The notes under the pieces: model-generated
Database searches by the model: none
Told to the model about the DNA's origin: nothing
Seen by the model: the letters and a program-made list of their open reading frames with translations, nothing else
Made by a program: the position numbers and the translations under genes
In this document: piece after piece, positions 8,664 to 25,844 of the stretch
How the letters are laid out: every line of letters begins with the position of its first letter
How positions within the stretch are numbered: position 1 is the first letter of the stretch
Source of the DNA: an uncultured Actinomycetes bacterium
Lineage (GTDB): Bacteria > Actinomycetota > Thermoleophilia > RBG-16-64-13
Assembly (NCBI GenBank): GCA_963784835.1
Contig: CAWASM010000002.1
Coordinates: 108,930 to 172,929, forward strand
DNA length: 64,000 nt
Direction of reading: 5' to 3'

Positions 8664-8876
8664 CGTATCCCCTCCTTGTCCGGATCACGGCAGACTGCAA
8701 GCTTCTTGCTGGTTCACGCCACAAGTTACCCGTGGGCATCTCGGCTCAAACGGCTGGGGGGCCGCGGCCGGCGCCTCGCAACAGCCGTCTTGGTTTGCGA
8801 CTCGAGCGTCCCAGGGGAAGAGATGCTAGACAACGGAGAAAGTGCCATCCCAAGGACACGAAGAGCGGAGGAGCCG

Positions 8877-10262
8877 ATGTCATCGACGCGCCAGTACGAT
8901 GCGATCATCATCGGGGCCGGTCAGGCGGGGGTCCCCTTGGCAAAGAGCTTGGCCAACGCCGGCTGGCGAACAGCCCTTGTGGAGCGGGAGCACGTAGGCG
9001 GAAGTTGCATCAATGAGGGGTGCACCCCCACCAAGACCATGGTCGCCTCGGCCCGTGTGGCCTATCTCGCCCGCAGGGCCGCGGACTACGGGGTGACGAC
9101 TGGCGCCGTGTCGGTCGACATGGGCGCGGTCAGACAAAGAAAGCGCGACCTGGTGGAGAGCTGGCGCGCAGGCAGCGAGCGCCGCCTGCGCGCCCTGGAC
9201 AACCTGGACCTGTTGATGGCGGAAGCCAGTTTCGTGGGGTCACACCAGATCGCGATCCGGCCATCTGAGGGAGAGACTCAGGTTGTTCAGGCGGAGCGCA
9301 TCTTCGTTAACACGGGTGCGCGCCCCTCGGTGCCCCCTTTGCCCGGACTCCAGCAGGTCCCCTTCTTGGACTCGACCACCATCATGGAACTCGACGAGAT
9401 CCCCGAGCACCTGCTGATCCTTGGCGGAGGGTACGTCGCGGTGGAGTTCGGCCAGATGTTCCGGCGCTTCGGAAGCAAGGTGACGGTCGTCCAGAGGAGA
9501 GATTCGCTCCTCGTCCGCGAGGACACCGACGTGGCTGACGCGTTGGCCACGATACTGCGGGAGGACGGCATCGAGTTGGTGCTGGGAGCCGAAGCCCGCG
9601 AGGTCGCCGCCGGGTCCCAGGGGGGAGTGTCGTTGAAGGTCGTGGTGGCATCCGGCGCCCGCACCTTGACCGGGTCCCACTTGCTCGTGGCGACCGGGAG
9701 GACCCCGAACACGGCGGCACTCGACCTGCCGGCCGCCGGCCTCCAGGTAGAACAAGCGGGCATATCCCGGTGAACGAGCGCTTGGAGACTAAGGTCAGCG
9801 GCATCTACGCTCTGGGCGACGTCAAGGGAGGACCGGCTTTCACGCACATCTCCTACGACGACTTCCGTATCATCCGCACGAACCTGCTGGAGGGTGGCGA
9901 TGCCACCATCAACGGCCGGCTCGTGCCCTATACCGTCTTCATGGACCCGCAACTCGGTCGTGTGGGCATCAGCGAGCGCGAAGCTCGCGACAAGGGGCTC
10001 GCAGTCAAGGTCTTCACCATGCCCATGGACTACGTCGCCCGCGCCCTGGAAGTGGACGAGTCACGAGGGTTCATGAAGGCCGTGGTCGATCAGACGACCG
10101 ATCGCATCTTGGGCTTCACGGCGTTGGGGATCGAGGGCGGCGAACTGATGGCCATGGTCGAGGTGGCCATGATGGGCGGGGTGACGGCTTCCGCCCTTCG
10201 CGAGAGCCGTATTTGCCCATCCGACACTGGCCGAATCACTGAACAACCTGTTCGCCGGTTAG
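8877..10262 (+). CDS. FAD-dependent pyridine nucleotide-disulfide oxidoreductase (class I; RclA/MerA/Lpd-like), frameshifts near 9770 and 10190
   Basis: [18 protein letters not shown]...[13 protein letters not shown] redox-active disulfide; C-terminal [13 protein letters not shown] dimerisation motif sits in a shifted frame. Confidence 0.6.
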
Positions 10263-10358
10263 AGACGGCACAAGTCACCGCCGCCTAGCTGGGAGTTTCG
10301 CTACGCGCCCGTTTGGGGGATATCGAAGCGAAAGAGCAGTCTGCGAAGGAGGAGTCCC

Positions 10359-10568
10359 GTGGGTAAGGTACCGGATACACCAGAAAACATGGCGCGCTGC
10401 ATGTGCGGCGGCTGCCCATCCTATCCCGGCGAGGGCGGCTTCTTCTGCGCCAAGGGCAAGAGCGCCAAGGAGATAACCAAGCGGGGTTGCCTCTGTGCTG
10501 GCTGTCCGATATTCAGGGCCAACGGTCTTACCGGCGGTTACTTCTGCGTCGCCGGCCAGGCGGAGTGA
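10359..10568 (+). CDS. DUF2769-type small cysteine-rich protein
   Basis: CMCGGCPSYPGEGGFFCAKG...GCLCAGCPIF...YFC motif arrangement. Confidence 0.5.
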   Translation: MGKVPDTPENMARCMCGGCPSYPGEGGFFCAKGKSAKEITKRGCLCAGCPIFRANGLTGGYFCVAGQAE

Positions 10569-11113
10569 CTGCCGCCCCGCGCCTGCTTGCCCTGGTGGCG
10601 CTCGCCACGCTCTTCGCCATGCCGGTCGTCTTGGCCTGCTCCTCGGCCGATGGTACCGACCCGACGACGACAAGTGCCGCCACGGGCTCGTCCGGCGCCA
10701 CCAGCGAGACGACGGGCACCAGCAGCTCTGCGGCCCAGGTCGGCGACCCCGGTCCTGACGGGGTGGGCATTGTAGTGGCCAGCTCCGACGGATCGGGCAC
10801 CTACGTCGACATCACTCCCGACGAGCTTGCCGCTATGCTCAAGCACAAGGACTTCCTCTTCATCAACGTCCACATCCCATACGCGGGGGAGATCGAGCAG
10901 ACAAACCTCTTTCTACCCTATGATCAGGCCGCCGAGCAATTGGACCAGCTCCCGGCCGACAAGAGCGCCAAGATCGTCGTCTATTGCCGTAGCGATCGCA
11001 TGAGCCGTATCTCGGTGAACGAGTGGGTCAAGGCCGGCTACACGAACCTCTACAATCTCGACGGCGGATTCGATGCCTGGGAAGCGGCCGGTTACAAGCT
11101 TCTGCAGAAGTAG
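10565..11113 (+). CDS. Rhodanese-domain lipoprotein (sulfurtransferase-like)
   Basis: GTG start overlapping the DUF2769 stop (GTGA); signal plus lipobox VVLACSS; Ser/Thr-rich linker; rhodanese fold with active-site Cys in VVYCRSDRMS. Confidence 0.6.
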   Translation: MTAAPRLLALVALATLFAMPVVLACSSADGTDPTTTSAATGSSGATSETTGTSSSAAQVGDPGPDGVGIVVASSDGSGTYVDITPDELAAMLKHKDFLFINVHIPYAGEIEQTNLFLPYDQAAEQLDQLPADKSAKIVVYCRSDRMSRISVNEWVKAGYTNLYNLDGGFDAWEAAGYKLLQK

Positions 11114-11203: not shown

Positions 11204-11233
11204 ATATAACCGTGCAAGCGCGTATACGTGAGC
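11204..11233. repeat. 30-bp box ATATAACCGTGCAAGCGCGTATACGTGAGC (copy A), just upstream of the truncated acr3; candidate ArsR operator/promoter
   Basis: Near-identical copy B at 11761-11790 (3 mismatches). Confidence 0.5.
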
Positions 11234-11278
11234 AAGGCCTGGCCGACTGCTCTCGTTTCGGCAAAGGTGAGGGAGCGC

Positions 11279-11640
11279 ATGAAGCGCCTTGGGTTTCTCG
11301 ATCGGTTCTTGACCCTGTGGATCTTTCTGGCCATGGGCATCGGGGTGGCGGCGGGGTACTTCTGGCCCCAGATAGGCAAAGCCATAGAGCGCGCGTCTAT
11401 CGGCACCACCTCCATCCCCATCGCCATCGGGCTTATCGTCATGATGTACCCGCCTCTGGCCAAGGTGCACTACGAGGAACTGGGCGACGTCTTTCGCAAT
11501 TGGAAGATCCTGGGGCTGTCGCTTGTTCAGAACTGGATCATCGGCCCCATCCTCATGTTCTTCCTGGCGATCCTCTTGCTCTCGGACATGTCGGCTCTCA
11601 TGCAGGGCTTCATGATCGGGCTGGCCCGGCACGCATCATC
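11279..11640 (+). pseudogene. acr3: ACR3-family arsenite efflux permease, N-terminal ~120 aa only
   Basis: [30 protein letters not shown]... typical ACR3 start; sequence degenerates after ~120 aa (full length is ~350 aa). Confidence 0.6.
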
Positions 11641-11760
11641 GTCTAACGACGGCCGGGCTCCGCGTCGCCCAACTGGGTGCCGCGATGTCGGTGATCTAGC
11701 TGGTCACCACGGCGAGAGCATAGTCACGTCCCCTCGACATTGGGCTCGGTTTCCGCTTCC

Positions 11761-11790
11761 ATATAACCGTTAAAGCGCTTATACGTGAGC
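11761..11790. repeat. 30-bp box copy B (ATATAACCGTTAAAGCGCTTATACGTGAGC) upstream of arsM
   Basis: Direct repeat of 11204-11233. Confidence 0.5.
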
Positions 11791-11901
11791 GCTGATGACC
11801 AGCAGCTCTCCTTGGGCGAGTGTTGAGGGAGAGCAAGATTTGGGCTGCCCGGCCACGATCGGTCGTTCCATCAAGACACATACCAAGACGGGAGACGAAT
11901 A

Positions 11902-12734
11902 GTGTCTGAGAGCAAAGACAACGATACTGTCCGTGACGCCGTGCGCGACCGTTACGCAGACATCGTGAAGGTGGGCGGATCGTGCTGCGGCGGCTCGCTC
12001 TGTTGCGGATCTTCGCCAGCCGGAGAAGAAGACCACCAACCATACATCGCCCGCAAAGTGGGGCATGCCGAGTCGCTCAAGCTCGGCTACAGCGAGGAAG
12101 AGCTGGCGGCAGCGCCTGAAGGCGCCAATCTGGGCTTGGGATGCGGCAATCCGCAGGCTATCGCGGCTTTGAAGCCGGGTGAAGTCGTGGTGGATCTAGG
12201 TGCGGGCGCGGGCTTCGACTGCTTCCTAGCCGCACGGGCTGTCGGCCCGGACGGCTTGGTGATAGGGGTGGACATGACCCCAGAGATGGTCGGCAAGGCC
12301 CGCGACAATGCGCGCAAGGCGGGCTACGCCAACGTCGATTTCCGGTTAGGTGAGATCGAGCACCTTCCGGTGGCCGACAAGACCGCGGACGTGATCATCT
12401 CCAACTGCGTGATCAACCTGTCGCCCGACAAGCCGGCGGTGTTCCGGGAGGCGTTCCGGGTGCTGAAGCCGGGCGGTCGTCTTGCGGTAAGCGACGTGGT
12501 GGCTACGGCCGAGTTGCCCCAGGAGTGGCGGGACGACATGCGCCTGCTTTCGGCCTGCATCTCGGGAGCAATCACGTGGACGAAGTGGAGGCGATGCTCA
12601 CGGCTGCCGGTTTCGTCGACATCGACATCCACCCCAAGGAAGAGAGCCGGGAGTTCATCCGCAAATGGGAGCCGGGGACCCGGCTGGAGGACTACGTGCT
12701 GTCGGCCAGCATACAGGCGACAAAGCCACGGTAG
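11902..12734 (+). CDS. arsM: Arsenite S-adenosylmethionine methyltransferase ArsM (frameshift near 12560)
   Basis: N-terminal Cys pairs [13 protein letters not shown]; SAM-binding [11 protein letters not shown]; ...[11 protein letters not shown]...; C-terminal ...[18 protein letters not shown] in a shifted frame. Confidence 0.7.
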
Positions 12735-12770
12735 AGACCTGGCGCGGGCGTAGACGAGAGCGGCTGGGAG

Positions 12771-13507
12771 GTGGAGAAATGGTACGAGACTTTGGCCCTC
12801 TTCTCGGACGTGCACGGCAACCGCCTCGCTCTCTGAGGCAGTTCTGGATGACCTGAAGGCTCGAGAGATCACCAGGCTGTACTGCCTGGGTGATCTGGTC
12901 GGGTACGGTGCCGATCCCAATGGGGTGATCGACCTGATCCGCAGCGGGGGCGTTGAAAGCATCCTCGGCAACTACGACGAGGGGGTCGCCTGGGAAACAG
13001 GCGACTGCGGCTGTTTCTACGGGGACGAGGAGGCCAAGCGGATCGGTGAGGCATCTTACGCCTTCACCGTCGCCGCGGTGACGGCCGAGAGGAAGGCCTA
13101 TCTGCGCACCCTCCCCAGGGAACGACAAATAGAACTCGCCGACAAGAAGGTCCACCTGGTCCATGGCAGCCCGAGTCGCATCAACGAGTATCTGCTCCCG
13201 CGATCGCGACGAGCGGACCTACCAGCGACTGGCGGAGACCGAGTCGGCAGATGTTCTTGCCTTCGGGCACACTCACGACCCCTGGTTCCGCCGGTATGGG
13301 GAGACACTTTTCGTGAACGTAGGTTCAGTGGGGCGACCCAAGGATGGCGACCCTCGCGCGGCCTTCGTGGTTCTGAGATCGTCTGCAGAAGCGTCCGTGG
13401 AAGTGGAAATCGGGCGGGTCGCATACGACGTAGAGGCTGCAGAGGCTGCAGTCCTCGCCGCCGGTCTTCCGGCGGCGCTCGCCGAGGCGCTACGCCAAGG
13501 AAGGTGA
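12771..13507 (+). CDS. Metallophosphoesterase (YfcE/MJ0936-like), frameshifts near 12810 and 13200
   Basis: [10 protein letters not shown] ... [11 protein letters not shown] ... LVHGSP ... AFGHTHDPW motifs over three frames. Confidence 0.55.
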
Positions 13508-13542
13508 CCGGCGCTGACCGGCCCCAAGGAGGTTGAGAACTG

Positions 13543-13977
13543 ATGAGCGACACGCAACAAGAGACCGGCGCGCAAGCGGACGCCGGCACACAGCCGGTGC
13601 TGCCCGGCCTGATCATGTGCGTCTGCACCGGCAAGTGCCCGGGATTCGAGAAGATGGACATCTGGGACTTCATCAACCGGGTGCGCATCGAGCTGCCGGT
13701 GGAGTTCGGGATGATCCACCCACAACTCTGCGAAGAGGATGGAGACCGCTTCCTGGCCGATATCCTGCAGGCCAAGCGGCCGCTGGTCATCGCCGGCTGC
13801 GCCCCCAACATGCAGTACAAGATGTTCCGCGACGCCTTCGCCGCGCAGGGCATGGACGTGAAGAAGGACATGGTCCCGCTCGACATCCGCGACATGACCA
13901 CCGATGAGGCGTTCGAGAAGGTGGCGGCCGCGCTTCGCGAGATGGGCGTCGAGGAGGACGGCGGCGAGGATGGCTGA
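13543..13977 (+). CDS. Cysteine-rich protein (CxC-x3-C ... C ... AGC), possibly MvhD/FlpD-like Fe-S protein
   Basis: LIMCVCTGKCPGF...QLCEEDGD...LVIAGCAPN; assignment tentative. Confidence 0.35.
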   Translation: MSDTQQETGAQADAGTQPVLPGLIMCVCTGKCPGFEKMDIWDFINRVRIELPVEFGMIHPQLCEEDGDRFLADILQAKRPLVIAGCAPNMQYKMFRDAFAAQGMDVKKDMVPLDIRDMTTDEAFEKVAAALREMGVEEDGGEDG

Positions 13978-14262
13978 GAACACCTTCATGGGCGTGCCCC
14001 GGGAGCAAGATCCCCTGGGCGCCCACCATCGACTACGACAAGTGCGACTTCTGCATGGAGTGCGACGAGTTCTGTCCGCACCGGGTCTTCGAGCGGCGCG
14101 AGGGCGACAAGAAGCTGGTGGTGGCCAATCCCGAACAACTGCGTGGTCTTCTGCCGGGCCTGCTCCAAGACCTGCGGCCCCGACGCGCTCTCGTTCCCGG
14201 ACAAGCCGGAGACCGTGGCTCTCATCAAGAAGACTGCACGTTCCGAGGAGGGCGAGGCATGA
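13970..14262 (+). CDS. 2x[4Fe-4S] ferredoxin (frameshifted)
   Basis: CDFCMECDEFCP and CVVFCRACSKTCGP motifs; reading frame breaks twice. Confidence 0.5.
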
Positions 14263-14740
14263 GCTACGTGGTCCTTGCCTGCACGGGTCTCGACAAGGCC
14301 GAGGGTTCGGTGGCCCGCGAAGTGGCCCTTCTGCCTGGCCGAGGAGACCGGAGCGGAGATCGTCTGCCCGGTGGTGCTCAATCGCACGCCGGCCCGCTAC
14401 AAGAAGACGCTCGCCGAGAACCGAGCTGATCGTGGTGGACGGCTGCGCCACCCAGTGCGCGAGCAAGCTGGCCGCAGCCGCGGAGACCAAGCCGGCGCAG
14501 AAGGTGCTGGTCTCCGAGGCGGTGAAGAAGTCGGGCCGCACTCTGGAACCCGAGCTCCGCCTTGGTCCCGATGCTCTCGAGCTTGCCCGAATGATCGTCG
14601 ACGACATCAAGGCGGCCGAAGACTGCCTCGTCCGAGGAAACGCGAGGGGCCGCAGAGAGCAGCCGACGGAGGTGGAGTTCGAAAGCCCGTCGGATTTCAC
14701 CGTGGTCGTCCACGACAAGTACGAGTTCCGCATCCCTTGA
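14259..14740 (+). CDS. DGC-domain protein (paralog 1)
   Basis: VVLACTGLDKAEG ... VVDGCATQCASK. Confidence 0.5.
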
Positions 14741-15126
14741 CCGGCTACTTCTTCAACGCCAACGACGTCTGGGTGCAGGTGGCCGGCACCAGGGCCCGGG
14801 TCGGCATCTCCGACTACATGCAGCAGCGGCTCACCGATATCACCTATGTGGACCCGCCCGAGGTCGGCGACGACCATCGAGCAGTTCGACGAGGTGGGCA
14901 CGGTCGAGTCGACCAAGGCCACCTTCGAGATGGTCTCGCCGGTGAGTGGCACGGTGGTGCGCATCAACGAGGCGGTGGACGACGCGCCCGAATCGATCAA
15001 CGAAGACCCCTACGGCAGCTGGATCGTCGAGCTGGAACTGACCGCCTGGGAGGAGGACCGCGACGTTGCTGGTCGACGGACCGGCCTACGCCGCCGACGT
15101 CGAGCGCAAGGCCGCAGAAGACTGAT
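14737..15126 (+). CDS. Glycine-cleavage H-protein-like lipoyl carrier (frameshifted)
   Basis: VWVQVAGTRARVGISDYMQQRLTDITYVDPPEVGD...IEQFDEVGTVESTKATFEMVSPVSGTVVRINEAVDDAPESINEDPYGSWIV, lipoyl-Lys in ESTKA. Confidence 0.55.
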
Positions 15127-15570
15127 GGGCAAGAGACAGATCGGAGGACAGATGAACGAAGACTCCGACAAGGTGCTCGTGATTCCCTGCAGCGGCATCG
15201 GCAAAGTCCATGGGCTCATCAGCCGGGAGTCCGCCTATCTGGTCACCGACGAGCTTGCCCCGGCCGAGACCGAGGTGGTGTGCTTGGCGCTGCTGGTGAG
15301 GGAAGACGAGGAGACCCTGGCCAAGGTGCGGGCGCATCCCTGCATCACGATCGACGGTTGTGCGAAGGCCTGTGCGCAGAAGAACGTCGAGATCGCCGGT
15401 GGGCAGGTGGCAAAGGCGTTTCAGGTGGCTACGGCTCTCCGGAATCACCGGGGAGCCCAGCCGGGCACCGGGTCGGAGCTCACCGAGGAGGGCTGGGCCA
15501 TCAGTCGGGAGATCGCCGAAGCCGTGGCCGAGACGCCGCCCGAATCTGCGCCGGCGAAGAGGTGGCATGA
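15125..15570 (+). CDS. DGC-domain protein (paralog 2)
   Basis: VLVIPCSGIGK ... ITIDGCAKACAQKN. Confidence 0.45.
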
Positions 15571-15983
15571 TGGCTGCGGAGATGAACAAGACCACGAAGG
15601 TGGGGATCATCTCCTGCAGTGGCGAGGAGATCGCCGAGGGCACCATCTCGCGCAGCGCCGTCCGCAGGGTGCTGGAATCCTTGCGGCCCCACGAGACCGT
15701 GACGCTCTGTCTGCCCCTGTTCCTGGCGGGCAACGAGGGCGAGCGCAACTTCGCCCGGACCCATCCGTCATCACCGATCGACGGATGCGACAAGCAATGC
15801 GCGACGATGGGGCACCGAGAAGCACGGGGCGGCCGGTCGCGCGCGCGCTGGTGGTGTCGGAGATCCTCGGGGGGAGGGCCGCCGGCTGTCAGCGCTCTTC
15901 GCGATCCCAGAGGCCGGCGGACGAGAAGCCGTGCGGTCGTGGCGGCCGAAGAGATCAGCTCGGCGGTCGACGCGCTCCTCTGA
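15567..15983 (+). CDS. DGC-domain protein (paralog 3), frameshifted C-terminus
   Basis: VGIISCSGEEIAEG ... ITIDGCDKQCATM. Confidence 0.45.
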   Translation: MMAAEMNKTTKVGIISCSGEEIAEGTISRSAVRRVLESLRPHETVTLCLPLFLAGNEGERNFARTHPSSPIDGCDKQCATMGHREARGGRSRARWWCRRSSGGGPPAVSALRDPRGRRTRSRAVVAAEEISSAVDALL

Positions 15984-16029
15984 GAGCAGCGAGGTCGTGC
16001 AGAAGGCAGCCTCCGGTGAAGGGTGGAAC

Positions 16030-16419
16030 ATGGACACTCTGGCCGACACCTTCAAGGCGCTCTCTGACGAGACGCGGCTGCAGATCATGACGCTGCTCCT
16101 CGAACGCGAGGAACTCTGCGTCTGCGACTTCGTCGGGGCGCTCGGACTGACCCAGTCGAAGGCTGTCTCGCCACCTCCGCTACCTCTACCATGCCGGGCT
16201 GGTAGAAGGACCGCCGGGAGGGGCTCTGGATGCACTACCGCATCTCGCCCGACTTGCCCAAGGAGCAGGCGACCATCATCGAACGCGCTGTCCCTGGCGG
16301 TCGGGGCGGACCAGAAGCGCGATCTGCGGCAACGGCTGGACGATTGGCTCGCTCTCAAGGACGAAAGACGGACGCCCGACCGGCAGCGAGGGCCAGGCCG
16401 GAGCCTGCTGCTATCCTAG
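16030..16419 (+). CDS. arsR: ArsR/SmtB-family metalloregulator with As(III)-type CVC site (two compensating frameshifts)
   Basis: DETRLQIMTLLLEREELCVCDFVGALGLTQSK ... SRHLRYLYHAGLVE (shifted) ... LWMHYRISPDL. Confidence 0.65.
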   Translation: MDTLADTFKALSDETRLQIMTLLLEREELCVCDFVGALGLTQSKAVSPPPLPLPCRAGRRTAGRGSGCTTASRPTCPRSRRPSSNALSLAVGADQKRDLRQRLDDWLALKDERRTPDRQRGPGRSLLLS

Positions 16420-16427
16420 GAGAAGAA

Positions 16428-18690
16428 ATGCGACCCAAGGAGCGACCATTGAGCGCTAGTCTCCCGGGAAGCGGCGACAGGGTCATCCCCACCTTCTGTC
16501 ATGGCTGCGGGTCGTACAAACCCGTCTGCGGCCTCCTATGTCACGTGAAAGACGGCAAATTCGTCAGAGTGGAAGGCAATCCGGACGCGTTCAACAACGG
16601 CGTTCCCGGTTCCACCTCCCTCTGCGCCAAGGGTCTTACGGGCCCACAGTTCGTGTATGCGGCCGACCGCTTGAAGTACCCCCTCAAGAGGATCGGGCCC
16701 AAGGGCGAGGGCAAGTTCCAGCGCATCACCTGGGACGAGGCTCTGGACACCATCGCCGACAAGTTGAAGGAGACCAAGGCCAAGTACGGTCCGGAGGCCT
16801 ACGGGGTGCTCTCCCCCGAGTATTGGCCGGTGCTCGGCACGCTGGGACGCCGGTTCCTCAACGTGTACGGCAGCCCGAACTACATGCACAGCGCCATCTG
16901 CGCGACACCCCGCATGGCCGCCGCGAAGGTGACCGTCGGCTACATCAGCATGGAGCCGGACGACTGGAACAAGACCAAGCTCTATGTCAATTGGGGTGCG
17001 AACGTCGAGAACTCCGGCGTGAACAAGGGCACCCCCCGGGCCATCCTCGACGCACTTGCGAACGGCATGCAGTACATCGATATCCGCCCGATGCTGGACC
17101 CCTTGGGAGCGAAGGCCGACATGTGGCTGCCGGTGAGGCCGGGCACCGACTGCGCGCTGGCGCTGGCGATGTTGAACGTCCTCATCGGCGAGAGCTTGTA
17201 CGACGCGGACTTCGTGGCGGAGTGGTGCCACGGCTTCGACAAGCTGGCCGAGCTACGTGCGCCGGTTCCCACCAGAATGGGCGGCGCCCATCACCGGCCT
17301 GCCGACACAACAGATCCGCGAGGCCGCCCGCCTCATCGGGACTACCCGCCCGGCGTTCATCAAGATGGGCAACGGCATCGGCGACCAGACCAACGACGGC
17401 ACTTCGACCACCTCGGCTATCTCTCTCATAGCCGCGATAACGGGCAACCTCGACGTACCCGGCGGCCATTTCGCCCCATCCGGCGGCTTTGGGCCGCTCG
17501 CCCCCACCCTGGAAGAGCTAGCTCCTCCCGGCATGGTGGAGAGACTGGTCGCTCCTGAGAGCCCCATGTGGTACCAGAAGAAAGGGTGGTGGGAGAGCGG
17601 ACCGACCACCGCCTATTACAAAGGACTCATGAGCATCCTCACCGGCGAGCCCTACCCGCTCCGCGTGCTCAACGCGAGTTGCTCCAACCCGCTGTCGGCC
17701 ACCCGGAATCCAAAGAAGGTGGCTGAGGCCCTGAAGAAACTCGACTTTATGTTCGTTATGGACGTCTCCCACGCTCCCCACGTCGACTTCGCCGACATCG
17801 TGCTCCCCGCCTGCACGAGCTACGAGCAGGGCGACTTCTTCTGCACCAGGAACACGCGCGAAGGGGTCTGGGTGGGTGGCTACAACAAGGTGGTCGAGCC
17901 TCTGGGTGAGTCGCGCAGCGACTGGCGCTTCTATCTCGACCTGGCCGTGCGCATGGGCTACGGCGAGCACTTCTGGCAGGGCAGCATGGACGGTCTCACC
18001 AACGAGATGCTTGCCCGCTACGGTGTCACCGCGGAGCAGTTGCGGCAGAATCCCGGGGGGATACTGGTAGCCAGGTCCGATCCGCCGGGCGGCGCGCGCG
18101 AGTACCGCAAGTATTCCACCCTCTTCAAAGACCTGCCCCAGGGTAAGGTGCAGTGCTACAACGAGCTGATCGGCGGCCAGGAGAGCTGCGACGAGAGCGG
18201 GCACGCTGCCCTACTTCCCCGTCTACAAGGGCCCGCCCGAAGGACTCGCCGAAACGCCGGGACTGGCGAAGGAGTTCCCGCTGATCCTAAGCGACGTCCA
18301 TGCCCACCGCCTATCCCAGCACAGCTACTTCCACAATGTCGCCTACCTGCGCGAGCTGCAGCCCTATCCCTGGCTCAAGATCAATCCGGCGACTGCGGAG
18401 AAGCACGGCATCGCCGACGGCGACTGGGTGAGAGTCGAGTCCCCGTATGGCTGGTGCAGACTCAAGGCCGAGTACTTCGCTGCCATCAGCCCTGAGGTGC
18501 TGATGACCAAGCGAGGGTGGTGGCAGTCGTGCGAGGAACTGGATCTGCCGGGCTACGGCACCAGCGACGGGGGCAGCGAGGTCAACAACCTCTATAACTC
18601 CGACGAAGAGTTGTTCGACAAGTTCTTCTCGCAGATGGCGAAACAGACGCTGGTCAGGATCAGCAGATGGGAAGAGACTCGGAACTCGAT
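16428..18690 (+). CDS. Molybdopterin (bis-PGD, DMSO-reductase-family) oxidoreductase catalytic subunit; no Tat signal, so cytoplasmic; frameshifts near 17270 and 18210
   Basis: N-terminal Fe-S CHGCGSYKPVCGLLCHVKDGKFVRVEGNPD; conserved MGNGIGDQTND and GDWVRVESPYG domain-IV motifs; RBS AGGAGAAG. Confidence 0.65.
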
Positions 18691-18842
18691 TCAGAATGAA
18701 GATACGACGACAGCCTGCGATGGACGAGTGCGAGGCAAGGACGCAGGAAGCGCTCGTAGTGGTGCTACGTGCGCGACCGAGGACGACGCCTCGTGCCGTC
18801 CAGTGCAGACTCGGCGGCCGCAGCTTCATTTTGAATCGAGTT
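18683..18842. repeat. 19-bp inverted repeat (AACTCGATTCA[G/A]AATGAAG) flanking a 122-bp spacer between the Mo-enzyme subunit genes
   Basis: Arms at 18683-18701 and 18824-18842 with 1 mismatch. Confidence 0.45.
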
Positions 18843-18850
18843 GTCAGGCC

Positions 18851-19312
18851 ATGGTGGAAGGGTACGCATTCAGTCACGATCCCCAGAGATGCATCAAGTG
18901 CTACAGCTGTGAGACGGCCTGCAAACAGTGGAAAGGCGTCGCTGCCGGCACTGTGAAGTTGCGCAGGGTCTACGAGGTCACTACCGGCACTTTCCCGCGG
19001 GTCACGAGGACCTTCCATTCCGTTGCCTGCCAACACTGCCCAGAGCCCCCGTGCGTCGACGCGTGCCCCACAGGAGCCATCGGCAAGACGGCGCCTGACG
19101 GGATCGTCATGGTCGATGCCGGGAAGTGCGACGGTTGCCGGGCATGTCTGGATGCGTGCCCGTTCGGCGTGCCGCAATTCGACCACGACGGCATCCTACA
19201 GCTGTGCGATCAGTGCCTGGACCGGCTGACCGAAGGCAAACGACCTATCTGCAGCGACGCCTGCCCGACCGGTGCGCTTCTACATACCGGGGATGCGGGG
19301 CACCTTACCTAG
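18851..19312 (+). CDS. 4Fe-4S ferredoxin-type electron-transfer subunit of the molybdoenzyme (DmsB/PsrB-like)
   Basis: CIKCYSCETAC, CQHCPEPPCVDACP, CDGCRACLDACP, CDQC...CSDACP cluster motifs. Confidence 0.65.
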   Translation: MVEGYAFSHDPQRCIKCYSCETACKQWKGVAAGTVKLRRVYEVTTGTFPRVTRTFHSVACQHCPEPPCVDACPTGAIGKTAPDGIVMVDAGKCDGCRACLDACPFGVPQFDHDGILQLCDQCLDRLTEGKRPICSDACPTGALLHTGDAGHLT

Positions 19313-20449
19313 CTTGCGCAGCTTGTAGTACCGTCCCCAACTCTTCTTCAGCCAGTGCCCGACAAAGGGCAGCGGGACGAACAGCGCGCGCTTCTCGTCC
19401 CGGTAGACAAATCCGGCGCCGTTTCCCATGTCCATGACGCAGATGATGCACAGCTCGTCGATGTAGCTCCCGCTCCGTCCGCGGCCGGTCTCTTTCCGGA
19501 CGATATCCTCCGCGGCAGTCCGGGCCATCACTTCCGCCATGTGACCCTGCTTGGCCTTCCACTCAGGTCCCTCCAAGGCGGCCATATCGCCGATAGCGTA
19601 AAGCCAGGGATACCCCTTCACCTCGCATGCCTGGTCTATCAGGACAAAGCCGGCTTCGTTTCGCGGGAGGTCTGAGGACTCCATGACGCCGTGGCCGGCT
19701 CCCGCGGGGATGAACATCACTAGATCCGCCTCGATCCTGGTCCCATCCTCCAGGACGACTGCGCCTTCCACGAACTCGCTTATCTTCTTGCCAGTGTAGG
19801 AACGGATGTCAAGAGACGGGAGCATGCGGTCCATGGCGCGCACCGCTTTCTCCCCCATCCGAATACCGGGTTGAGGCATGGGCGCGAAGAAGACAAGGTC
19901 GAAATCCTTACGGATCCCCAGCTTCTTCAACCGATGGTGCACGTTGAACAGAAATTCGAACCCGGGACCGCCCCGCACGGCGCTGCTGTCCTTCGGATTG
20001 CCCCCGAAACCGACCGCGATCGTCCCGCTGCCCGCGGCGATGAGTGCGTCCAGTCGCTCGCGCACGCGAGTGCTTTCCTCAGGAGCACCGCAGATGGAGA
20101 GCGTGTGCTCCTTGCCTTTGTGCGGCATCTTGGCGGCGCCAAGAGCCAGTACCAGATAGTCGAAGTCCTGGCGTTCTCCGCCGTCCTTGAGCGTAAAGCT
20201 GCGTCCGGCGGCGCTGACCGCTGTGACCTGGTCAACGGTGATCTGGAACCCATGCGCCCGGGCGATATCGGCAAGTCCGATGCTCACCCGCTCGACCGAC
20301 CGTTCTCCCGTGGGGATCCAGATGGCAAGCGGATAGACGAAGAGGTAGTCCCTGTCGGAGACCAGTTCGACTGCGAAGCCCTTCTTCTTCAGCTCGATGG
20401 CGGCCTCTACCCCGCCGATGCCCCCACCCAAAACGACTGCGCGCTTCAT
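19280..20449 (-). CDS. FAD-dependent NAD(P)H-disulfide-oxidoreductase-fold flavoprotein, SQR/NDH-2-like
   Basis: MKRAVVLGGGIGGVEAA Rossmann motif; ...WLYAIGDMAA...; intact 389 aa. Confidence 0.55.
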   Translation of the reverse strand: MKRAVVLGGGIGGVEAAIELKKKGFAVELVSDRDYLFVYPLAIWIPTGERSVERVSIGLADIARAHGFQITVDQVTAVSAAGRSFTLKDGGERQDFDYLVLALGAAKMPHKGKEHTLSICGAPEESTRVRERLDALIAAGSGTIAVGFGGNPKDSSAVRGGPGFEFLFNVHHRLKKLGIRKDFDLVFFAPMPQPGIRMGEKAVRAMDRMLPSLDIRSYTGKKISEFVEGAVVLEDGTRIEADLVMFIPAGAGHGVMESSDLPRNEAGFVLIDQACEVKGYPWLYAIGDMAALEGPEWKAKQGHMAEVMARTAAEDIVRKETGRGRSGSYIDELCIICVMDMGNGAGFVYRDEKRALFVPLPFVGHWLKKSWGRYYKLRKLGKVPRIPGM

Positions 20450-20542
20450 TTCTGACTCACCTTCGCTTTCAGCCTCTGGCCACTTCAGACCAGACTAAGT
20501 ATAATGCACCAATGTGCAAAACTACCAGGTGGGAGAAGAGCC

Positions 20543-21262
20543 TTGGCGCGACCAGCGAAATGGCGCTGTCTGGAGTGTCTTCCGGGGGCGAAAGCCTTCG
20601 GCCCTGCCGGAGTGCCCGTGGGAAGACTCGAGAAAGTGCGTCTGGCTTTTGACGAACTCGAGGCGCTCCGACTGCTCCACCTGGAGGGAGCCACGCAAGC
20701 GGAGGCGGCGCGGAGACTGGGCGTGTCGCGCTCCACGGTCAGCCGGATGGCCGAACGAGCGCACCACACTGTCACCGAAGCCTTGGTCTTCGGCAAAGCA
20801 GTGTGCGTCGAGGGCGGACCTGTGACGGTAGTGCGGATCGGGGAGGCTCCGGAGGGCGCCCCCCGCGACGGCATGGAGACGAACACAAACAGCACCGACG
20901 AAGGAGGAGACAGAATGTTCATTGCAGTGCCTTATCTAGAGGGGAACGTGAACGCGCACTTCGGTAGCACCCAGGCCTTCCTGTTGGCGGAGGTGGTCGA
21001 CGGCAAGGTGACGGGGACGTCGATCTTTGAAGTCCAGGGCATGCAGCACAACCACTCAGGCATAGCAGGGTTCTTGAAGGAGCAAGGGGTGGAGGTCATC
21101 CTGGCCGGAGGCATGGGCGCGCCGATGCAACAGGCACTCAAGGCCCAGGGGTTCAGCCTCTACTGCGGTGTCGCCGGACCGGCTCTTGAGGCAGTGGATG
21201 CCTATCTGCGCGGAGCGATAGAGCAAAGCGAAAGCACCTGCGGACATCATCACGGGGAGTAG
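20543..21262 (+). CDS. DUF134 (UPF0251) DNA-binding domain fused to a NifX/NifB-type FeMo-cofactor-binding domain
   Basis: RPAKWRCLECLPGAKAFGPAGVP...LEALRLLHLEGATQAEAARRLGVSRSTVSR then MFIAVPYLEGNVNAHFGSTQAFLLAEV...VILAGGMGAPM; TTG start after a GGGAGAAG RBS; TATAAT at 20497-20502. Confidence 0.5.
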   Translation: MARPAKWRCLECLPGAKAFGPAGVPVGRLEKVRLAFDELEALRLLHLEGATQAEAARRLGVSRSTVSRMAERAHHTVTEALVFGKAVCVEGGPVTVVRIGEAPEGAPRDGMETNTNSTDEGGDRMFIAVPYLEGNVNAHFGSTQAFLLAEVVDGKVTGTSIFEVQGMQHNHSGIAGFLKEQGVEVILAGGMGAPMQQALKAQGFSLYCGVAGPALEAVDAYLRGAIEQSESTCGHHHGE

Positions 21263-21290
21263 CAGAGCAACTTCCAGAAAGGAACGAGTC

Positions 21291-21686
21291 ATGGACATGG
21301 AGATCTATTTCCCGGGCGGCAAGCGCGTGTACGCCGACTACGGCGGGTTCACCATCGAGACGGACCAGCCTGCTCGCAGCGGCGGTGGCGACTCCGCTCC
21401 GGCGCCGTTCGATCTGTTCCTCGCCTCCATCGGCACCTGCGCCGGCATCTACGCCCTAGGTTTCATGCAGCAGCGAGGCGTCGACCCTGAAGGGTCCAAG
21501 CTCACCATGCGTACCCACTACAACCCGGACGTCGGCCTCATCGACAATATCGAACTGGAGCTGAAGACCCCGCCCGGCTTCCCGGACAAGTACCGCGATG
21601 CCATCGTAAACGCCATGAACCTTTGCGCGGTCAAAAAGCACCTCCAGCAGCCGCCCGCGTTCACCGTCACGACGGTGAAGGGCTGA
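21291..21686 (+). CDS. OsmC/Ohr-family peroxiredoxin-like protein
   Basis: 131 aa with the paired Cys (IGTCAG ... NLCAV) typical of OsmC. Confidence 0.65.
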   Translation: MDMEIYFPGGKRVYADYGGFTIETDQPARSGGGDSAPAPFDLFLASIGTCAGIYALGFMQQRGVDPEGSKLTMRTHYNPDVGLIDNIELELKTPPGFPDKYRDAIVNAMNLCAVKKHLQQPPAFTVTTVKG

Positions 21687-21812
21687 CGCGCGCGGCCGGT
21701 TCATCTTCGCGGACCGACCATAAGAGGATTCTAATCGGCCTCTCATGTGAGCCTCATAGAGCTTGACTAGCCTGAAGGCCGGTTGGCACACGCTAGAGCT
21801 TCCCCAAGGAGG

Positions 21813-22940
21813 ATGAATCGAGTGAAGGGCAAGCGTCCACGACGGCTGCAGCTCTTCCGGTATGCCGTACAGGTGATCGTCGCCGCATACGTGCTGCTGC
21901 TGGTCATCGCCAACACCGCCGGCGAGCGCTGGGCGGCGAACCTGCACACCATCTGCCCCTTCGGCGGAGTGGTGAACCTGTACACCTACTTTACGGGCGG
22001 CGCATATGTGGCCAAGCTGCATTCGGCCGTGTTCATCATGCTCATCGCCCTCCTAATAGGCCTGGTCCTCACCGGGAAGTCCTTCTGCGGCTGGATCTGC
22101 CCGCTCGGCTCGGTGCAGCAAGGGCTGGGCTGGGTGGGCCAGCGGCTCTGGCCCCGCGCCTACAACAAGGTGCCACGGTGGCTCGAGCGCATCTTCCACT
22201 ATATGAAGTGGGCCGTGCTCGCATGGGTACTGGTACAGACGGCCCGGAGCAGCCTGCTCATCTTCCAGAACTGGGATCCCTACTACAACCTCTACCGCAT
22301 CTGGACCGATCAGATCGCTTTGACCGGATACATCGTGACCGGCCTCACTTTGCTCCTGTCGTTCTTCATACCGAGGCCGTTCTGCCGGTACGGCTGTCCT
22401 CTGGGCGCCTTCAATGGCATCTTCAACTCGTTTTCCTTGGTGGGCATCAAACGCGATGCGAAGACCTGCACCGACTGCGGGCGTTGCACGAAGGCCTGCC
22501 CTGTGAACATCGACCTCTGCGCCAGCACCACAATCCGGAGCGTGGAATGCATGCGCTGCCTCAAGTGCGTTGACGCCTGCCCTCAGAACTCGAGGACAAG
22601 TGACACACTCAAGCTGCACACCTGGCTCAGCGGACTGTCCCGGTCTGGCTCTGGGAAAGCCGCGGCGGCCGTCTCGGCAGCCGCGGACGCTCCCGCGGCG
22701 CGACCAGTCGCGCCAAGCGGCGCTCGATCTCCACGTGGGTGTTTGCCGGGATTGCTATCGCGGCCTTCGCACTCCCCATCCTCATCACCAATCTCACAGG
22801 CGATTTCCAGATCACCGGCGGTGGTGGCGGTGGTGGTGGCGGCGGCGGAGGCGGTGGCGGCCAAGAGTCCACGCAGCCCGGTGCCCTTGAGGGGACAGAG
22901 GAGCTCGCGGGCTCGGGTCAGACCGACACCAGCCAGGTGA
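21813..22940 (+). CDS. NapH/MauN-type membrane polyferredoxin; sequence after ~22620 is low-complexity and probably frameshifted or spurious
   Basis: FCGWICPLG and FCRYGCPLG motifs plus CTDCGRCTKACP and CMRCLKCVDACP clusters; AAGGAGG RBS before the ATG at 21813. Confidence 0.55.
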   Translation: MNRVKGKRPRRLQLFRYAVQVIVAAYVLLLVIANTAGERWAANLHTICPFGGVVNLYTYFTGGAYVAKLHSAVFIMLIALLIGLVLTGKSFCGWICPLGSVQQGLGWVGQRLWPRAYNKVPRWLERIFHYMKWAVLAWVLVQTARSSLLIFQNWDPYYNLYRIWTDQIALTGYIVTGLTLLLSFFIPRPFCRYGCPLGAFNGIFNSFSLVGIKRDAKTCTDCGRCTKACPVNIDLCASTTIRSVECMRCLKCVDACPQNSRTSDTLKLHTWLSGLSRSGSGKAAAAVSAAADAPAARPVAPSGARSPRGCLPGLLSRPSHSPSSSPISQAISRSPAVVAVVVAAAEAVAAKSPRSPVPLRGQRSSRARVRPTPAR

Positions 22941-23119
22941 TCCGGGGCAGCAGCACTTTGGCCGATATCCAGGCCATGGGAGTCGACATCGCGGAGTTGG
23001 CGCGCGAGTTAGCCATCCCGGAGGATACTCCCCTCGACACGCAGCTTCGGGATCTGACCGACCAGTACGGCTTCACCGTGAGTGAGGTGCGTGCGTATGT
23101 GGACAGTGTTGTCCCTTAG
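22739..23119 (+). CDS. Hypothetical TM helix, 15-Gly linker and ~60-aa C-terminal domain; may be the true C-terminus of the NapH-like protein after a frameshift
   Basis: FAGIAIAAFALPILI then G15 then ...ADIQAMGVDIAELARELAIPEDTP... Confidence 0.3.
   Translation: MFAGIAIAAFALPILITNLTGDFQITGGGGGGGGGGGGGGGQESTQPGALEGTEELAGSGQTDTSQVIRGSSTLADIQAMGVDIAELARELAIPEDTPLDTQLRDLTDQYGFTVSEVRAYVDSVVP
22817..22861 (+). repeat. (GGN)15 trinucleotide tract encoding poly-Gly
   Basis: ggcggtggtggcggtggtggtggcggcggcggaggcggtggcggc. Confidence 0.85.
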
Positions 23120-23218
23120 GCGAGATGAAGACCGGGTCGAAAGCGCGGTCGCCGGTCCACCCCAGGCTTCCTTTCGAATGCCTCTGCTAACATTGTCCCC
23201 AGGTGAGCCCGAGGAAGG

Positions 23219-23623
23219 TTGGTGAGACCGTTGACCTCTCTGCTTCGCCGCTTGGCCGTCCCTCTGGTCGCAGCAGGCCTTGTTGTGATCGTCATCATCG
23301 TCGCCCTCGTGGTGTTCGGCCTCGGCCGCTCCGGCGACGACTCGGCCTCCGCGCTGCCGGCGATCCAGATCGGGAGCGCATCCGCAGGCCAGAGCGACGA
23401 AGAAACCACCTCTACGTCATCGACGACTACCACGACGTCAGGCTCTGAAGCGCCGGTGACGAGCATCGGTCAGATCCAAGGAACCGGTACGACTCTGGGT
23501 CAGAGCGGCTCGACGGAATCCACCATCCATGCCGGCGGCACAACGGTCATCTCGGGTCAGATCCGAGTTCAACAGGGGCATGCTGGTCAAGGAGGCCCTT
23601 CCTCCACCGGCTCGGGCAGGTGA
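23219..23623 (+). CDS. Hypothetical membrane-anchored Ser/Thr-rich protein
   Basis: N-terminal TM segment then low-complexity S/T/G-rich region. Confidence 0.3.
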   Translation: MVRPLTSLLRRLAVPLVAAGLVVIVIIVALVVFGLGRSGDDSASALPAIQIGSASAGQSDEETTSTSSTTTTTSGSEAPVTSIGQIQGTGTTLGQSGSTESTIHAGGTTVISGQIRVQQGHAGQGGPSSTGSGR

Positions 23624-24320
23624 TGCGACCTTGCGGCTGCTGCTTAGTCGAGGACGAGACCAGAGTGGCTTCCTTCATCGCCAAGGGCCTCGAGGGGCCG
23701 GGTACGTCACCGATGTCGTCGCCGAGGGGCTGAAGCGCTCGACCGCTTGCGACGGGATCGAGCAGACTGGGATCTCATCCTGCTCGACGTGGGCCTTCCC
23801 GATATGGACGGGTTCCAGGTGCTGGCAGAGGTCCGCAAGACCGACCAAGTCACTCCCATCATCATGCTCACCGCCCGCGGTGATGTGCCCTCGCGGGTCA
23901 AGGGCCTGGATCTGGGGGCCGACGACTACCTTCCCAAGCCCTTCGACTTCGACGAGCTGGTGGCGCGCATCCGGGCGCAACTCCGACACGACCGCCAGCA
24001 GCACGGGTCGGTGCTTCAGGGCGCGGGACCTGACCGCTCGATCTCGAAGGCGCGCAGGGCCTCCCGGGGCGACCGCGTGTTCGATCTGACCTCCCGGGAG
24101 TTCGCACTGCTCGAGTTCTTTCTCCGCCACCAAGGGCAGGTCCTCACACGGTCGCAGCTCCTGAACGGAGTCTGGGGATACGATTTCGACCCGCAAAGCA
24201 ATGTGGTCGACGTCTACGTCGGCTATCTGCGTGGCAAGCTGGACGAACCGCCGGTGAGTCTGTGATCGAGACCGTGCGCGGCGGAGGCTACCGGTTCCGC
24301 GCCTCCAAGAGTGCCAGCGG
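23623..24320 (+). CDS. OmpR-family response regulator (frameshifted)
   Basis: LVEDETRVASFIAKGLE..DLILLDVGLPDMDG...IIMLTARGD...LDLGADDYLPKPF; winged helix ...VVDVYVGYLRGKL. Confidence 0.6.
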
Positions 24321-24321
24321 A

Positions 24322-25692: not shown

Positions 25693-25844
25693 GCCTGTCG
25701 TCTCTCCTAAGAATCTTCTCATCCGACTCTTAGCCTCACTTAACAAGGGCTCTCTAGACTGAAAGCTGACGGGTAGAAGACCCGTCATATGGCGGATCGT
25801 CTTTCAGCCGTCCGCTAACAAGCAAGATACTAGGAGGTCGATCA

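Follow-up and report, generated by a model that had tools for sequence, protein, structure and literature searches.

A conserved iron-sulfur, DGC and lipoyl-carrier gene cassette tied to arsenic regulons in uncultured soil bacteria

Described systems and the five-gene cassette

The sHdr-LbpA system combines a GcvH-like lipoate-binding protein with a dedicated sLpl(AB) ligase, Hdr-like iron-sulfur (Fe-S) proteins and ArsR-type repressors (PMC11094781, PMC10332631, PMC12423496). In mycobacteria, a relay runs from NADH through Lpd, lipoyl-DlaT and AhpD to AhpC, in which a CxxC protein is reduced by a lipoyl arm (PMC12028322). The ArsR5-ArsP-ArsE-DGC operon of Pseudodesulfovibrio mercurii ND132 is reported to be induced by both As(III) and As(V), with no function assigned there to its PF08859 protein (bioRxiv 10.1101/2022.10.17.512643). 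Here, we analyze a stretch of 64,000 nucleotides (nt) from an uncultured Actinomycetes bacterium (contig CAWASM010000002.1), referred to as the window, in which positions 13543-15983 hold a cassette of five genes in the order P1 (a small Cys-rich protein), ferredoxin, a fusion of a DGC and a GcvH domain, and two further DGC proteins (DGC2 and DGC3). The cassette is apparently an undescribed gene set that is widespread and conserved. The initial annotation of this locus had not recognized the combination as a described ars module, and we likewise found no description of it in the open-access literature, nor any report there that connects ars operons with lipoate ligase, GcvH or glycine cleavage; the ND132 preprint was the only related work found.

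A scan with the P1 alignment over one genome per GTDB species found 302 loci, and a census was made of 83 non-redundant loci, in which genes were identified by tblastn searches with a set of query proteins. The five genes stand in the same order in 83/83 of these loci wherever the contig allows, and the recurrence of this order in independent loci places the combination far beyond chance. Pfam-annotated contexts (six P1 homologues and one fusion homologue) gave P1, Fer4, a DGC+GCV_H fusion of 280-303 amino acids, DGC and DGC in 7/7 cases. The intergenic spacings of −8, −4, +13 to +16 and about −1 nt, that is, overlapping or near-touching genes, suggest translational coupling and one complex.

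The carriers are uncultured soil bacteria, with hundreds of genomes from peat, soil and sediment. The best 80 of the 302 loci belong to Actinomycetota (Thermoleophilia, Gaiellales), Acidobacteriota (Terriglobia, Bryobacterales, Solibacteraceae and Ca. Sulfotelmatobacter), Armatimonadota, Planctomycetota, a Desulfovibrio and Ca. Geothermincola. On the plasmids of PLSDB, neither P1 nor a full-length fusion was found, the matches being ordinary gcvH genes only. Mean pairwise identity is 78% for P1, 72% for the ferredoxin and 49-57% for the DGC proteins, and this top conservation of the two Fe-S proteins would favor redox chemistry as the function of the cassette.

Like sHdr-LbpA, the cassette is cytoplasmic and uses a GcvH-like carrier outside glycine cleavage, with a lipoate-protein ligase alongside (46/83 loci), Hdr-related Fe-S partners and an ArsR-family repressor. 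Unlike sHdr-LbpA, it comes without HdrB/HdrC (CCG), a full HdrA flavoprotein or DsrE/TusA in the Pfam-annotated contexts, it has three DGC proteins, one of them fused to the carrier, and its neighbors are ars genes instead of sox or other sulfur genes. With the mycobacterial relay, it would share a protein-bound dihydrolipoyl arm as reductant of a small CxxC protein, but its donor is probably Fe-S/ferredoxin rather than Lpd (a class-I flavoprotein adjoins few loci), its carrier is a dedicated H-protein fusion and not an E2 subunit, and its targets are presumed to be arsenic enzymes. The ND132 operon likewise places a PF08859 DGC protein and a PF13192/TIGR00412 ArsE-type protein under ArsR, whereas its single DGC protein stands alone and a lipoyl carrier, P1, ferredoxin and ligase are lacking. 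We file the cassette under a design in which Fe-S proteins and a dedicated lipoate-binding protein are governed by an ArsR-family regulator, here in an arsenic context and with the orphan DGC and P1 families.

Cassette proteins and their arsenic context

P1 (144 amino acids; positions 13543..13977, + strand) is the sole intact cassette gene in the window. It has 1350 homologues in several phyla, 72-94% identical among the matches listed, and Cys residues C26, C28, C32, C63 and C86 are invariant in its alignment (A1). At E <= 0.01, P1 matched no family of Pfam or NCBIfam, including FlpD (PF02662), and the MvhD-like label given to it by the initial annotation fails by profile and holds by fold and aligned Cys. 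The P1 profile aligns with HdrA residues 5-93 (E = 0.003), with four of the five invariant Cys matching HdrA Cys, and a Foldseek search with the P1 model returned HdrA chains as the top 7 matches (E 9e-5 to 1e-3), followed by MvhD chains (E about 0.02). P1 shares the small alpha/beta fold and aligned Cys with the HdrA N-terminal domain and MvhD (PDB 5odc, 5odh, 7bkb) and differs from them in being free-standing, in its length of 125-144 amino acids, in its fifth invariant Cys and in having no FlpD match. The likeness points to an HdrA-N-terminal/MvhD-like fold, in which a single predicted Fe-S cluster would act as an electron connector. As a sequence family, P1 is isolated, with 114 matches at E <= 1e-3 among 1.84 billion representative proteins. 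P1 as a fourth DGC paralogue was also considered and rejected by sequence, the hhalign comparison of P1 with DGC being not significant (probability 0.7%).

The ferredoxin gene (~96 amino acids; 13970..14262, + strand; Fer4 25.3 bits) directly follows P1 in 83/83 loci. In the window, it overlaps the P1 end by 8 nt (13970-13977), and this overlap is real and conserved. The protein has two 4Fe-4S-type Cys motifs and is weakly HgcB-like, its HgcB/HgcAB-like matches lying below cutoff.

The third gene (14259..15125, + strand) encodes the DGC-linker-GcvH fusion of ~286 amino acids. Among its homologues (569 found), 120/120 of those listed hold both domains, and their public annotation is "glycine cleavage system H protein". 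Cys residues C8, C36, C62 and C66 of the fusion's DGC domain are invariant, and so is the lipoyl-lysine K218 in 25 diverse fusions. In an AlphaFold2 model of the fusion (mean predicted local distance difference test score, pLDDT, 86), the DGC domain is a four-stranded alpha/beta domain with the invariant Cys following strands 1, 2 and 3, which would bring the four Cys to one edge of the sheet. The GCV_H match reaches 103.6 bits, above the curated threshold of PF01597, and the fusion falls just below the NCBIfam gcvH cutoffs (116 vs 117 for NF002270; 102 vs 115.85 for TIGR00527). It differs from ordinary GcvH in its N-terminal DGC domain and in its setting under ArsR with Fe-S proteins and without gcvT/gcvP (GCV_T, GDC-P), which occur in none of the Pfam-annotated cassette contexts. 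An indirect pointer to lipoylation of the fusion lysine is the ligase gene near the cassette, whose product scores 94 bits with NCBIfam TIGR00545, below cutoff.

DGC2 (~139 amino acids; 15152..15570, + strand; Pfam DGC 2.1e-14) has an alternative upstream ATG at 15125, and DGC3 (~138 amino acids; 15567..15983, + strand; Pfam DGC 8.4e-12) overlaps the DGC2 stop. Across the three DGC paralogue types, C13, C44, C70 and C74 are invariant together with D68-G69, including a D-G-C-x3-C motif. The DGC profile had no meaningful match among PDB sequences, and the fold matches are generic flavodoxin-like folds only. In one metagenome-assembled genome (MAG; GCA_039683595.1), DGC3 of locus L002 (11925-12605) is 226 amino acids long and has a C-terminal extension with runs of Cys (ENCCCS..., GECACS). 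The extra thiols of this tail may be relevant to metalloid binding.

The genes within 10 kb of the cassette were counted in all 83 loci. ArsR was present in 74, an ArsE-type thioredoxin-like protein (Trx3) in 63, lipoate-protein ligase (LplA) in 46, CcdA/DsbD in 38, ArsM in 36, ACR3 in 30 and an ArsC of the low-molecular-weight (LMW) protein tyrosine phosphatase type in 17; at least one of ACR3, ArsM, ArsC or ArsP was found in 51/83. Full flanking sequence (>=8 kb upstream and >=6 kb downstream) is available for 51 loci; of these well-flanked loci, 50/51 have ArsR, 31/51 have ACR3, ArsM, ArsC or ArsP, and 51/51 have either ArsR or a canonical ars gene. Six loci of the census have neither, and each of them is truncated by a contig end. 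By estimate rather than computation, a random 20-kb locus would hold an ars gene only a few percent of the time. The census indicates that the DGC and GcvH genes noted in the window are a real module tied to arsenic regulons.

The identity of these partners is supported by profile scores: Trx3 of related loci belongs to TIGR00412, the "MTH895/ArsE family" (109 bits, cutoff 62), and the orthologue of the window methyltransferase on L001, a Joint Genome Institute metagenome contig with the same genes intact, is an arsenite methyltransferase by NF008823 (315 bits, cutoff 263). The cassette-adjacent ArsR has a CxC[DE] motif in 55/75 loci. In R773-type ArsR, the As(III) site consists of Cys32/Cys34 in helix alpha-3 plus Cys37. 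The window ArsR/SmtB repressor (16033..16419, end approximate, + strand; HTH_5 52 bits; NF033788 91.5 bits, cutoff 55) has ELCVCDF(VG) in helix 3, with the CVC pair. A third Cys is missing from position +3, a Cys-Cys pair lies at the C terminus instead, and a CadC-type N-terminal Cys is lacking.

Two gene arrangements recur. In Acidobacteriota and Armatimonadota, the order is usually ArsR-ArsE-cassette-LplA, and in Actinomycetota, including the window, it is ACR3-ArsM-metallophosphoesterase-cassette-ArsR. The latter order is common to the window, L001, L007 (a MAG and the closest syntenic relative, with P1 90% identical to window P1), L008, L010, L017 and L069. The upstream genes of the window, for ACR3, ArsM and a YfcE-type metallophosphoesterase (11228..13507, + strand; identified by tblastn with L001 proteins), end 35 nt before P1.

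Several further genes were observed around the cassettes. The window island includes a class-I pyridine-nucleotide disulfide oxidoreductase, dihydrolipoyl-dehydrogenase/MerA-like (8676-10288). Similar flavoproteins occur in L091-L093 (~6950-8377), L011 and L058, and in one widespread variant (P0033, 516 member sequences), the flavoprotein gene immediately precedes ArsR-ArsE-cassette. Through this enzyme, NAD(P)H could feed electrons to the lipoyl arm, but most loci do not conserve it. A Cys-rich DUF2769 mini-protein of 69 amino acids overlaps the start of a lipoprotein-like rhodanese upstream of ACR3 (10359-11113); DUF2769 is also found in L026 and the rhodanese in L007, neither next to the cassette. 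As conserved partners, the Lpd/MerA-like flavoprotein, DUF2769, rhodanese, OsmC and NapH-like proteins of the window were rejected, each recurring in <=1-2 loci by tblastn. In some Actinomycetota loci, the cassette is accompanied by ACR3, a corrinoid protein of MtrA type (PF04208) and an ArsM-like methyltransferase, upstream of it in L005, L072 and L094 and also in L080, with a URO-D/MtaA-like gene in addition in L005 and L072. This set is a hint of arsenic-related methyl transfer that depends on a corrinoid. The L001 island (3304-5504 and 8568-10004) holds an aldehyde:ferredoxin oxidoreductase of the tungsten type, accompanied by a ThiS-like protein, as well as ArsP, DUF169, an AhpD-like CMD protein and, directly upstream of P1, a second small ferredoxin. 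DUF169 and CMD also occur in L091 and in six loci by tblastn.

Gene array of the window, its indels and the molybdoenzyme pair

The window locus was read by three-frame translation of 13400-19500, with frames joined by eye and checked against intact homologues, and its open reading frames (ORFs) were searched against Pfam and NCBIfam. The GC content is 62-68%, long ORFs fill all six frames and the coding frame on the + strand shifts repeatedly. Seven long antisense ORFs across 13.1-19.2 kb match no Pfam family and are shadow ORFs of 64% GC sequence. An Rfam scan of the whole window gave 0 matches, and hence no molybdenum cofactor or other riboswitch. A promoter scan of the window gave no promoter-like sites, terminator-like sites were no commoner than in shuffled sequence with none on the + strand, and no operator-like palindrome was found in the three intergenic regions checked.

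The array consists of eight tightly packed co-directional genes, and the initial annotation was right that all of them lie on the + strand. It had counted nine, as DGC1 and GcvH were taken as separate genes, while they form one protein in every homologue. Every domain that it named is present, with Pfam matches for three DGC, GCV_H, ArsR HTH_5, three Mo-bisPGD and Fer4_11 domains; the DGC domains (PF08859) score 59.8, 53.9 and 45.5 bits against a cutoff of 27, and the ESTKA lipoyl-lysine and ELCVCDF motifs can both be read in the window sequence. Among the start/stop overlaps that had been described, those at 14259 (ATGA) and 15567 stood and are conserved. The "TTGA junction" at 14737 proved to be a 1-nt deletion (14739) within the fusion gene, and at 15125 a TGATG overlap does exist, but homologues start at the ATG at 15152 after GGAGG. 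The "classical arsenic island" placed beside the array is present in damaged form, with ACR3 internally deleted.

Every gene from 13970 to ~18700 carries single-base indels. Relative to L001 (81% nucleotide identity over 13543-16420), ~18 frame-breaking indels fall within 13543-16420 (~2.9 kb), mostly 1-nt insertions outside homopolymers, with insertions outnumbering deletions. The ferredoxin gene is broken by 1-nt insertions near 14001 and 14133 and needs three frames in tblastn with the L001 ferredoxin, the fusion is split over six frame segments, DGC2 has one 1-nt deletion near 15531, DGC3 several indels between 15803 and 15936, arsR four 1-nt insertions and molybdoenzyme subunit A two frameshifts (~17250 and ~18200). 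Removal of the indels yields full-length proteins with no internal stop and with 78-88% identity to those of L001 (83% for DGC2), and the corrected genes differ from L001 by 231 synonymous and 167 non-synonymous codons. The absence of stops and the synonymous excess indicate genes under purifying selection, with indels of very recent or artefactual origin. Assembly error as the source would fit with the closest genome relatives, which are soil MAGs from long reads.

Indels were also observed outside the array. The Lpd/MerA-like flavoprotein is split (8676-9773 and 9770-10288), ArsM (~12097-12731) is frameshifted, the metallophosphoesterase (12771-13507) lies in three frames with two frameshifts, and two-component genes at 23.7-25.7 kb (region 23477-25991) show many 1-nt gaps relative to L007. 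A region-by-region comparison of indel density in the window with L007 is uninformative, as L007 may contain errors itself. In ACR3 (11228-11900), L001 residues 1-118 and 353-379 align and the ~234 residues between them are represented by only 187 nt, the corresponding region in L007, L008, L010, L017 and L069 being longer by ~450-700 bp; this internal deletion is not a base-calling error.

The array could be a dead remnant, in which the indels, the ACR3 deletion and the element-disrupted molybdoenzyme operon described below are all real and the island is decaying. The density of ~18 indels in 2.9 kb, whereas several ORFs of 600-760 amino acids elsewhere in the window are intact, and the loss of several hundred bp from ACR3 would agree with decay. 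On the other hand, such decay should also yield stop codons, and the corrected genes have none, with synonymous exceeding non-synonymous differences; the insertion excess runs opposite to the usual bacterial deletion bias, 1-nt indels relative to L007 occur in further window regions too, and the closest relatives are long-read MAGs. We consider a dead remnant unlikely, and the single-base indels of the window look like sequencing or assembly errors rather than decay.

The array ends with a molybdoenzyme pair. The Mo/W-bis(pyranopterin guanine dinucleotide) (bisPGD) catalytic subunit A (~750 amino acids; 16428..18676, + strand; 5040 homologues found) has three Mo-bisPGD domains and belongs by general resemblance to the PsrA/PhsA/acetylene-hydratase group, and the DmsB-type four-cluster Fe-S subunit B (153 amino acids; 18851..19312, + strand; Fer4_11 82 bits) overlaps at its 3' end the convergent gene for a sulfide:quinone reductase (SQR)-like protein (19280-20449, − strand). 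Subunit A was rightly described as Tat-less (lacking a twin-arginine translocation signal), as it has no twin-arginine motif: its first Fe-S Cys lies ~20-24 residues from the start without RR. Close orthologues lack TAT_signal (PF10518), which ~60%-identical relatives have. The orthologues at 65-84% identity are Tat-less and ~705-790 amino acids long, with a few fused to B (~910-920 amino acids; natural fusions P0163, P0165, P0171 and P0208), and the pair is kept in all orthologue contexts examined, with the Fe-S subunit of ~150 amino acids ~3 nt after A. The nearest PDB relatives are acetylene hydratase (1.8e-71), Thermus PsrA (6e-61) and ArrA (2e-45), and all NCBIfam equivalogs score far below cutoff (ArrA NF041714 145.8 vs 1600, AioA TIGR02693 45 vs 359, PhsA NF012032 285.7 vs 694). 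With acetylene hydratase, PsrA/PhsA and ArrA, the enzyme shares a Mo/W-bisPGD subunit with an N-terminal [4Fe-4S] motif; it resembles acetylene hydratase in being cytoplasmic and Tat-less, and Psr/Arr in its DmsB-type Fe-S partner. It differs from all of them in falling below every equivalog cutoff, in lacking Tat and a membrane anchor (no PsrC/PhsC gene lies beside A and B in the window or in four independent orthologue contexts), and in having ars genes beside the pair only in this window.

Between the last codons of A and the ATG of B, a 171-nt palindromic element (18677..18847) resembling a miniature inverted-repeat transposable element (MITE) is inserted. In the reference L087, A ends ...RWEEA*, three nt before the B start, and window B is 78% identical to L087 B; in the window, the element replaces the A stop codon, so that A and B read through in one frame. 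The element is a near-perfect palindrome with the terminal inverted repeat AACTCGATTCARAATGAAG at 18683 and 18824 and an RNA fold of −91 kcal/mol (z = −6.0). Related copies lie on many soil metagenome contigs (e.g., L110, 121 nt, 85%; L137, 80 nt, 90%), which indicates that it belongs to a dispersed MITE-like family. A C-terminal truncation of subunit B by insertion could not be shown, homologue tails being variable.

The initial annotation had speculatively proposed that the lipoyl arm and DGC thiols bind or relay As(III) or Sb(III) to an arsenic-inducible molybdoenzyme. In its full form, the cassette would relay the metalloid or electrons to the adjacent ArsR-controlled cytoplasmic molybdoenzyme, as a novel arsenic-transforming enzyme. 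It is correct that arsR lies immediately upstream, ending a few bases before the molybdoenzyme start codon; the genes are co-directional with no + strand terminator detected, and of two MAGs with both pair and cassette (~25 kb and ~2.4 Mb apart), one holds them within ~25 kb. However, an adjacent orthologue was found for 0/83 cassettes, and four loci hold only distant dimethyl sulfoxide reductase (DMSOR) relatives (25-32% identity). Ars genes are absent from 4/4 independent orthologue contexts, where the neighbors include pyruvate:ferredoxin oxidoreductase, acyl-CoA dehydrogenase, MaoC, radical-SAM, HapK and MMPL genes. L007 aligns with window 13523-16413 and resumes at 19277 with 4 nt between the blocks; there, the convergent SQR-like gene comes immediately after the arsR stop, exactly the segment 16414-19276 (2.86 kb) being missing, and at the junction with this segment the native stop of window arsR is blurred. 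Besides, the enzyme is closer to acetylene hydratase/PsrA than to ArrA and far below the ArrA and arsenite-oxidase cutoffs, and the window pair itself is broken by frameshifts and the 171-nt insertion. The model is largely refuted by this comparative genomics and we regard it as highly improbable. Judged from sequence comparison, the pair is a separate, presumably cytoplasmic PsrA/acetylene-hydratase-like enzyme inserted after arsR in this lineage only, a probable bystander outside the conserved cassette.

In place of only ~860 bp in L007, the window has a further block (20453-23176) that encodes OsmC, a NapH-like polyferredoxin and a regulator of DUF134+NifX-like type. The window hence carries two extra segments relative to L007, the molybdoenzyme pair and this block, and the region looks like a mosaic of small insertions.

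Proposed function of the cassette and its meaning

We tentatively favor, as a plausible rather than a probable reading, that the cassette is an ArsR-controlled, ferredoxin-fed lipoyl dithiol relay that supplies reductant to, or chelates for, arsenic-handling proteins. As(III) would release ArsR, so that a self-contained dithiol-regenerating machine is made. Low-potential electrons would enter via the ferredoxin and the HdrA-like P1 and pass through the four-Cys DGC sites to reduce the lipoyl disulfide on the fused H-protein, whose swinging dihydrolipoyl arm would be the working dithiol of the ars island. This arm could re-reduce CxxC partners, i.e., ArsE, AhpD-like CMD proteins and, via CcdA, periplasmic thioredoxins, which in turn would re-reduce the Cys-dependent ArsM and ArsC; it may also bind trivalent arsenicals transiently. 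ArsM and LMW-type ArsC need a thioredoxin-type reductant for Cys recycling. Some cassettes include AhpD-like CMD genes, and a family of ArsM-AhpD fusions exists in NCBIfam. Two Fe-S carriers, three four-Cys domains, a lipoyl arm and a ligase argue for dithiol redox chemistry and not for passive binding.

Several points weigh against this relay. We infer every mechanistic step from sequence and by analogy. No ArsE gene was found in the window, the ligase is absent near 45% of cassettes, the window included, and a canonical ars structural gene is lacking within 10 kb in 20/51 of the well-flanked loci. The class-I flavoprotein beside some cassettes means that NAD(P)H could replace ferredoxin as donor there. 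Members of the ArsR family can also sense sulfane sulfur or Cd/Pb. The DGC domain has a generic fold and no sequence relative in the PDB, Zn is the sole ligand suggested for it in the literature found, and promoters, terminators and operator-like palindromes were not detected in the window.

The main rival to the redox relay is a chelator or chaperone, in which the dihydrolipoyl arm and the DGC Cys would bind As(III), MAs(III) or Sb(III) directly, shield essential lipoyl enzymes and, like ArsD, hand the metalloid to ArsM, ACR3 or ArsP, while the Fe-S proteins only keep the thiols reduced; it corresponds to the idea of the initial annotation minus the molybdoenzyme. Dihydrolipoate and other vicinal dithiols are classically known to bind trivalent arsenicals with high affinity, and each cassette supplies three paralogous domains of four Cys plus a lipoyl arm, with extra Cys-rich tails on some DGC3 proteins, in tight linkage to ArsR, ACR3, ArsM and ArsP; the DGC gene within the arsenic-induced ArsP-ArsE operon of P. 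mercurii also agrees with binding. Yet the Fe-S proteins would not be expected to be the most conserved components if binding were the core function, stoichiometric sequestration needs no five-protein translationally coupled set, and the 20/51 loci mentioned above offer no efflux or methylation gene within 10 kb as recipient. We therefore hold chelation to be doubtful as the principal function, noting that chelation and the redox relay are not mutually exclusive. It is possible, if somewhat speculative, that the cassette is an unrecognized arsenic-handling enzyme system, with the lipoyl dithiol as the catalytic arm on which an Fe-S/DGC complex driven by ferredoxin would load, reduce or transform arsenicals; possible roles would be those of a novel kind of arsenical reductase, a thioarsenic-processing enzyme or a dedicated reductant for anaerobic arsenic methylation. 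A sulfur, sulfane-sulfur or thioarsenic system would have the lipoyl arm carry sulfane sulfur or process thioarsenates under an ArsR-type regulator that responds to sulfane sulfur, with ars neighbors explained by shared sulfidic habitats. sHdr-LbpA has the same kinds of components, its repressors being sHdrR and SoxR, P1 resembles HdrA, and a rhodanese and an SQR-like flavoprotein lie near the cassette in the window. These two genes are, however, not conserved beside the cassette, the HdrB/HdrC, DsrE and TusA genes of sulfur oxidation are missing as noted above, the regulators mostly have the CVC metalloid site and the recurrent partners are ArsM, ACR3, ArsC and ArsE, which makes a sulfur function very unlikely in our view.

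The toxicity of arsenite is classically attributed to its binding to the dihydrolipoyl groups of 2-oxoacid dehydrogenases. If a lipoylated H-protein with its own ligase and Fe-S feed serves under ArsR, arsenite's target would also be a tool. The carrier habitats, i.e., peat, soil and sediment, are those where arsenic methylation and mobilization are of concern, and ArsM is a frequent neighbor of the cassette; if ArsM or ArsC draws its reductant from the cassette, the latter would be a missing variable in models of anaerobic arsenic cycling. The cassette gives a testable context to the orphan families DGC/PF08859 and P1, as well as to ArsE, and the catalytic-arm reading, if true, would provide a first function for DGC (PF08859) and for the P1 family. 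Overall, the cassette extends the design of Hdr-like Fe-S proteins with a lipoate-binding protein to a setting beyond sulfur oxidation.

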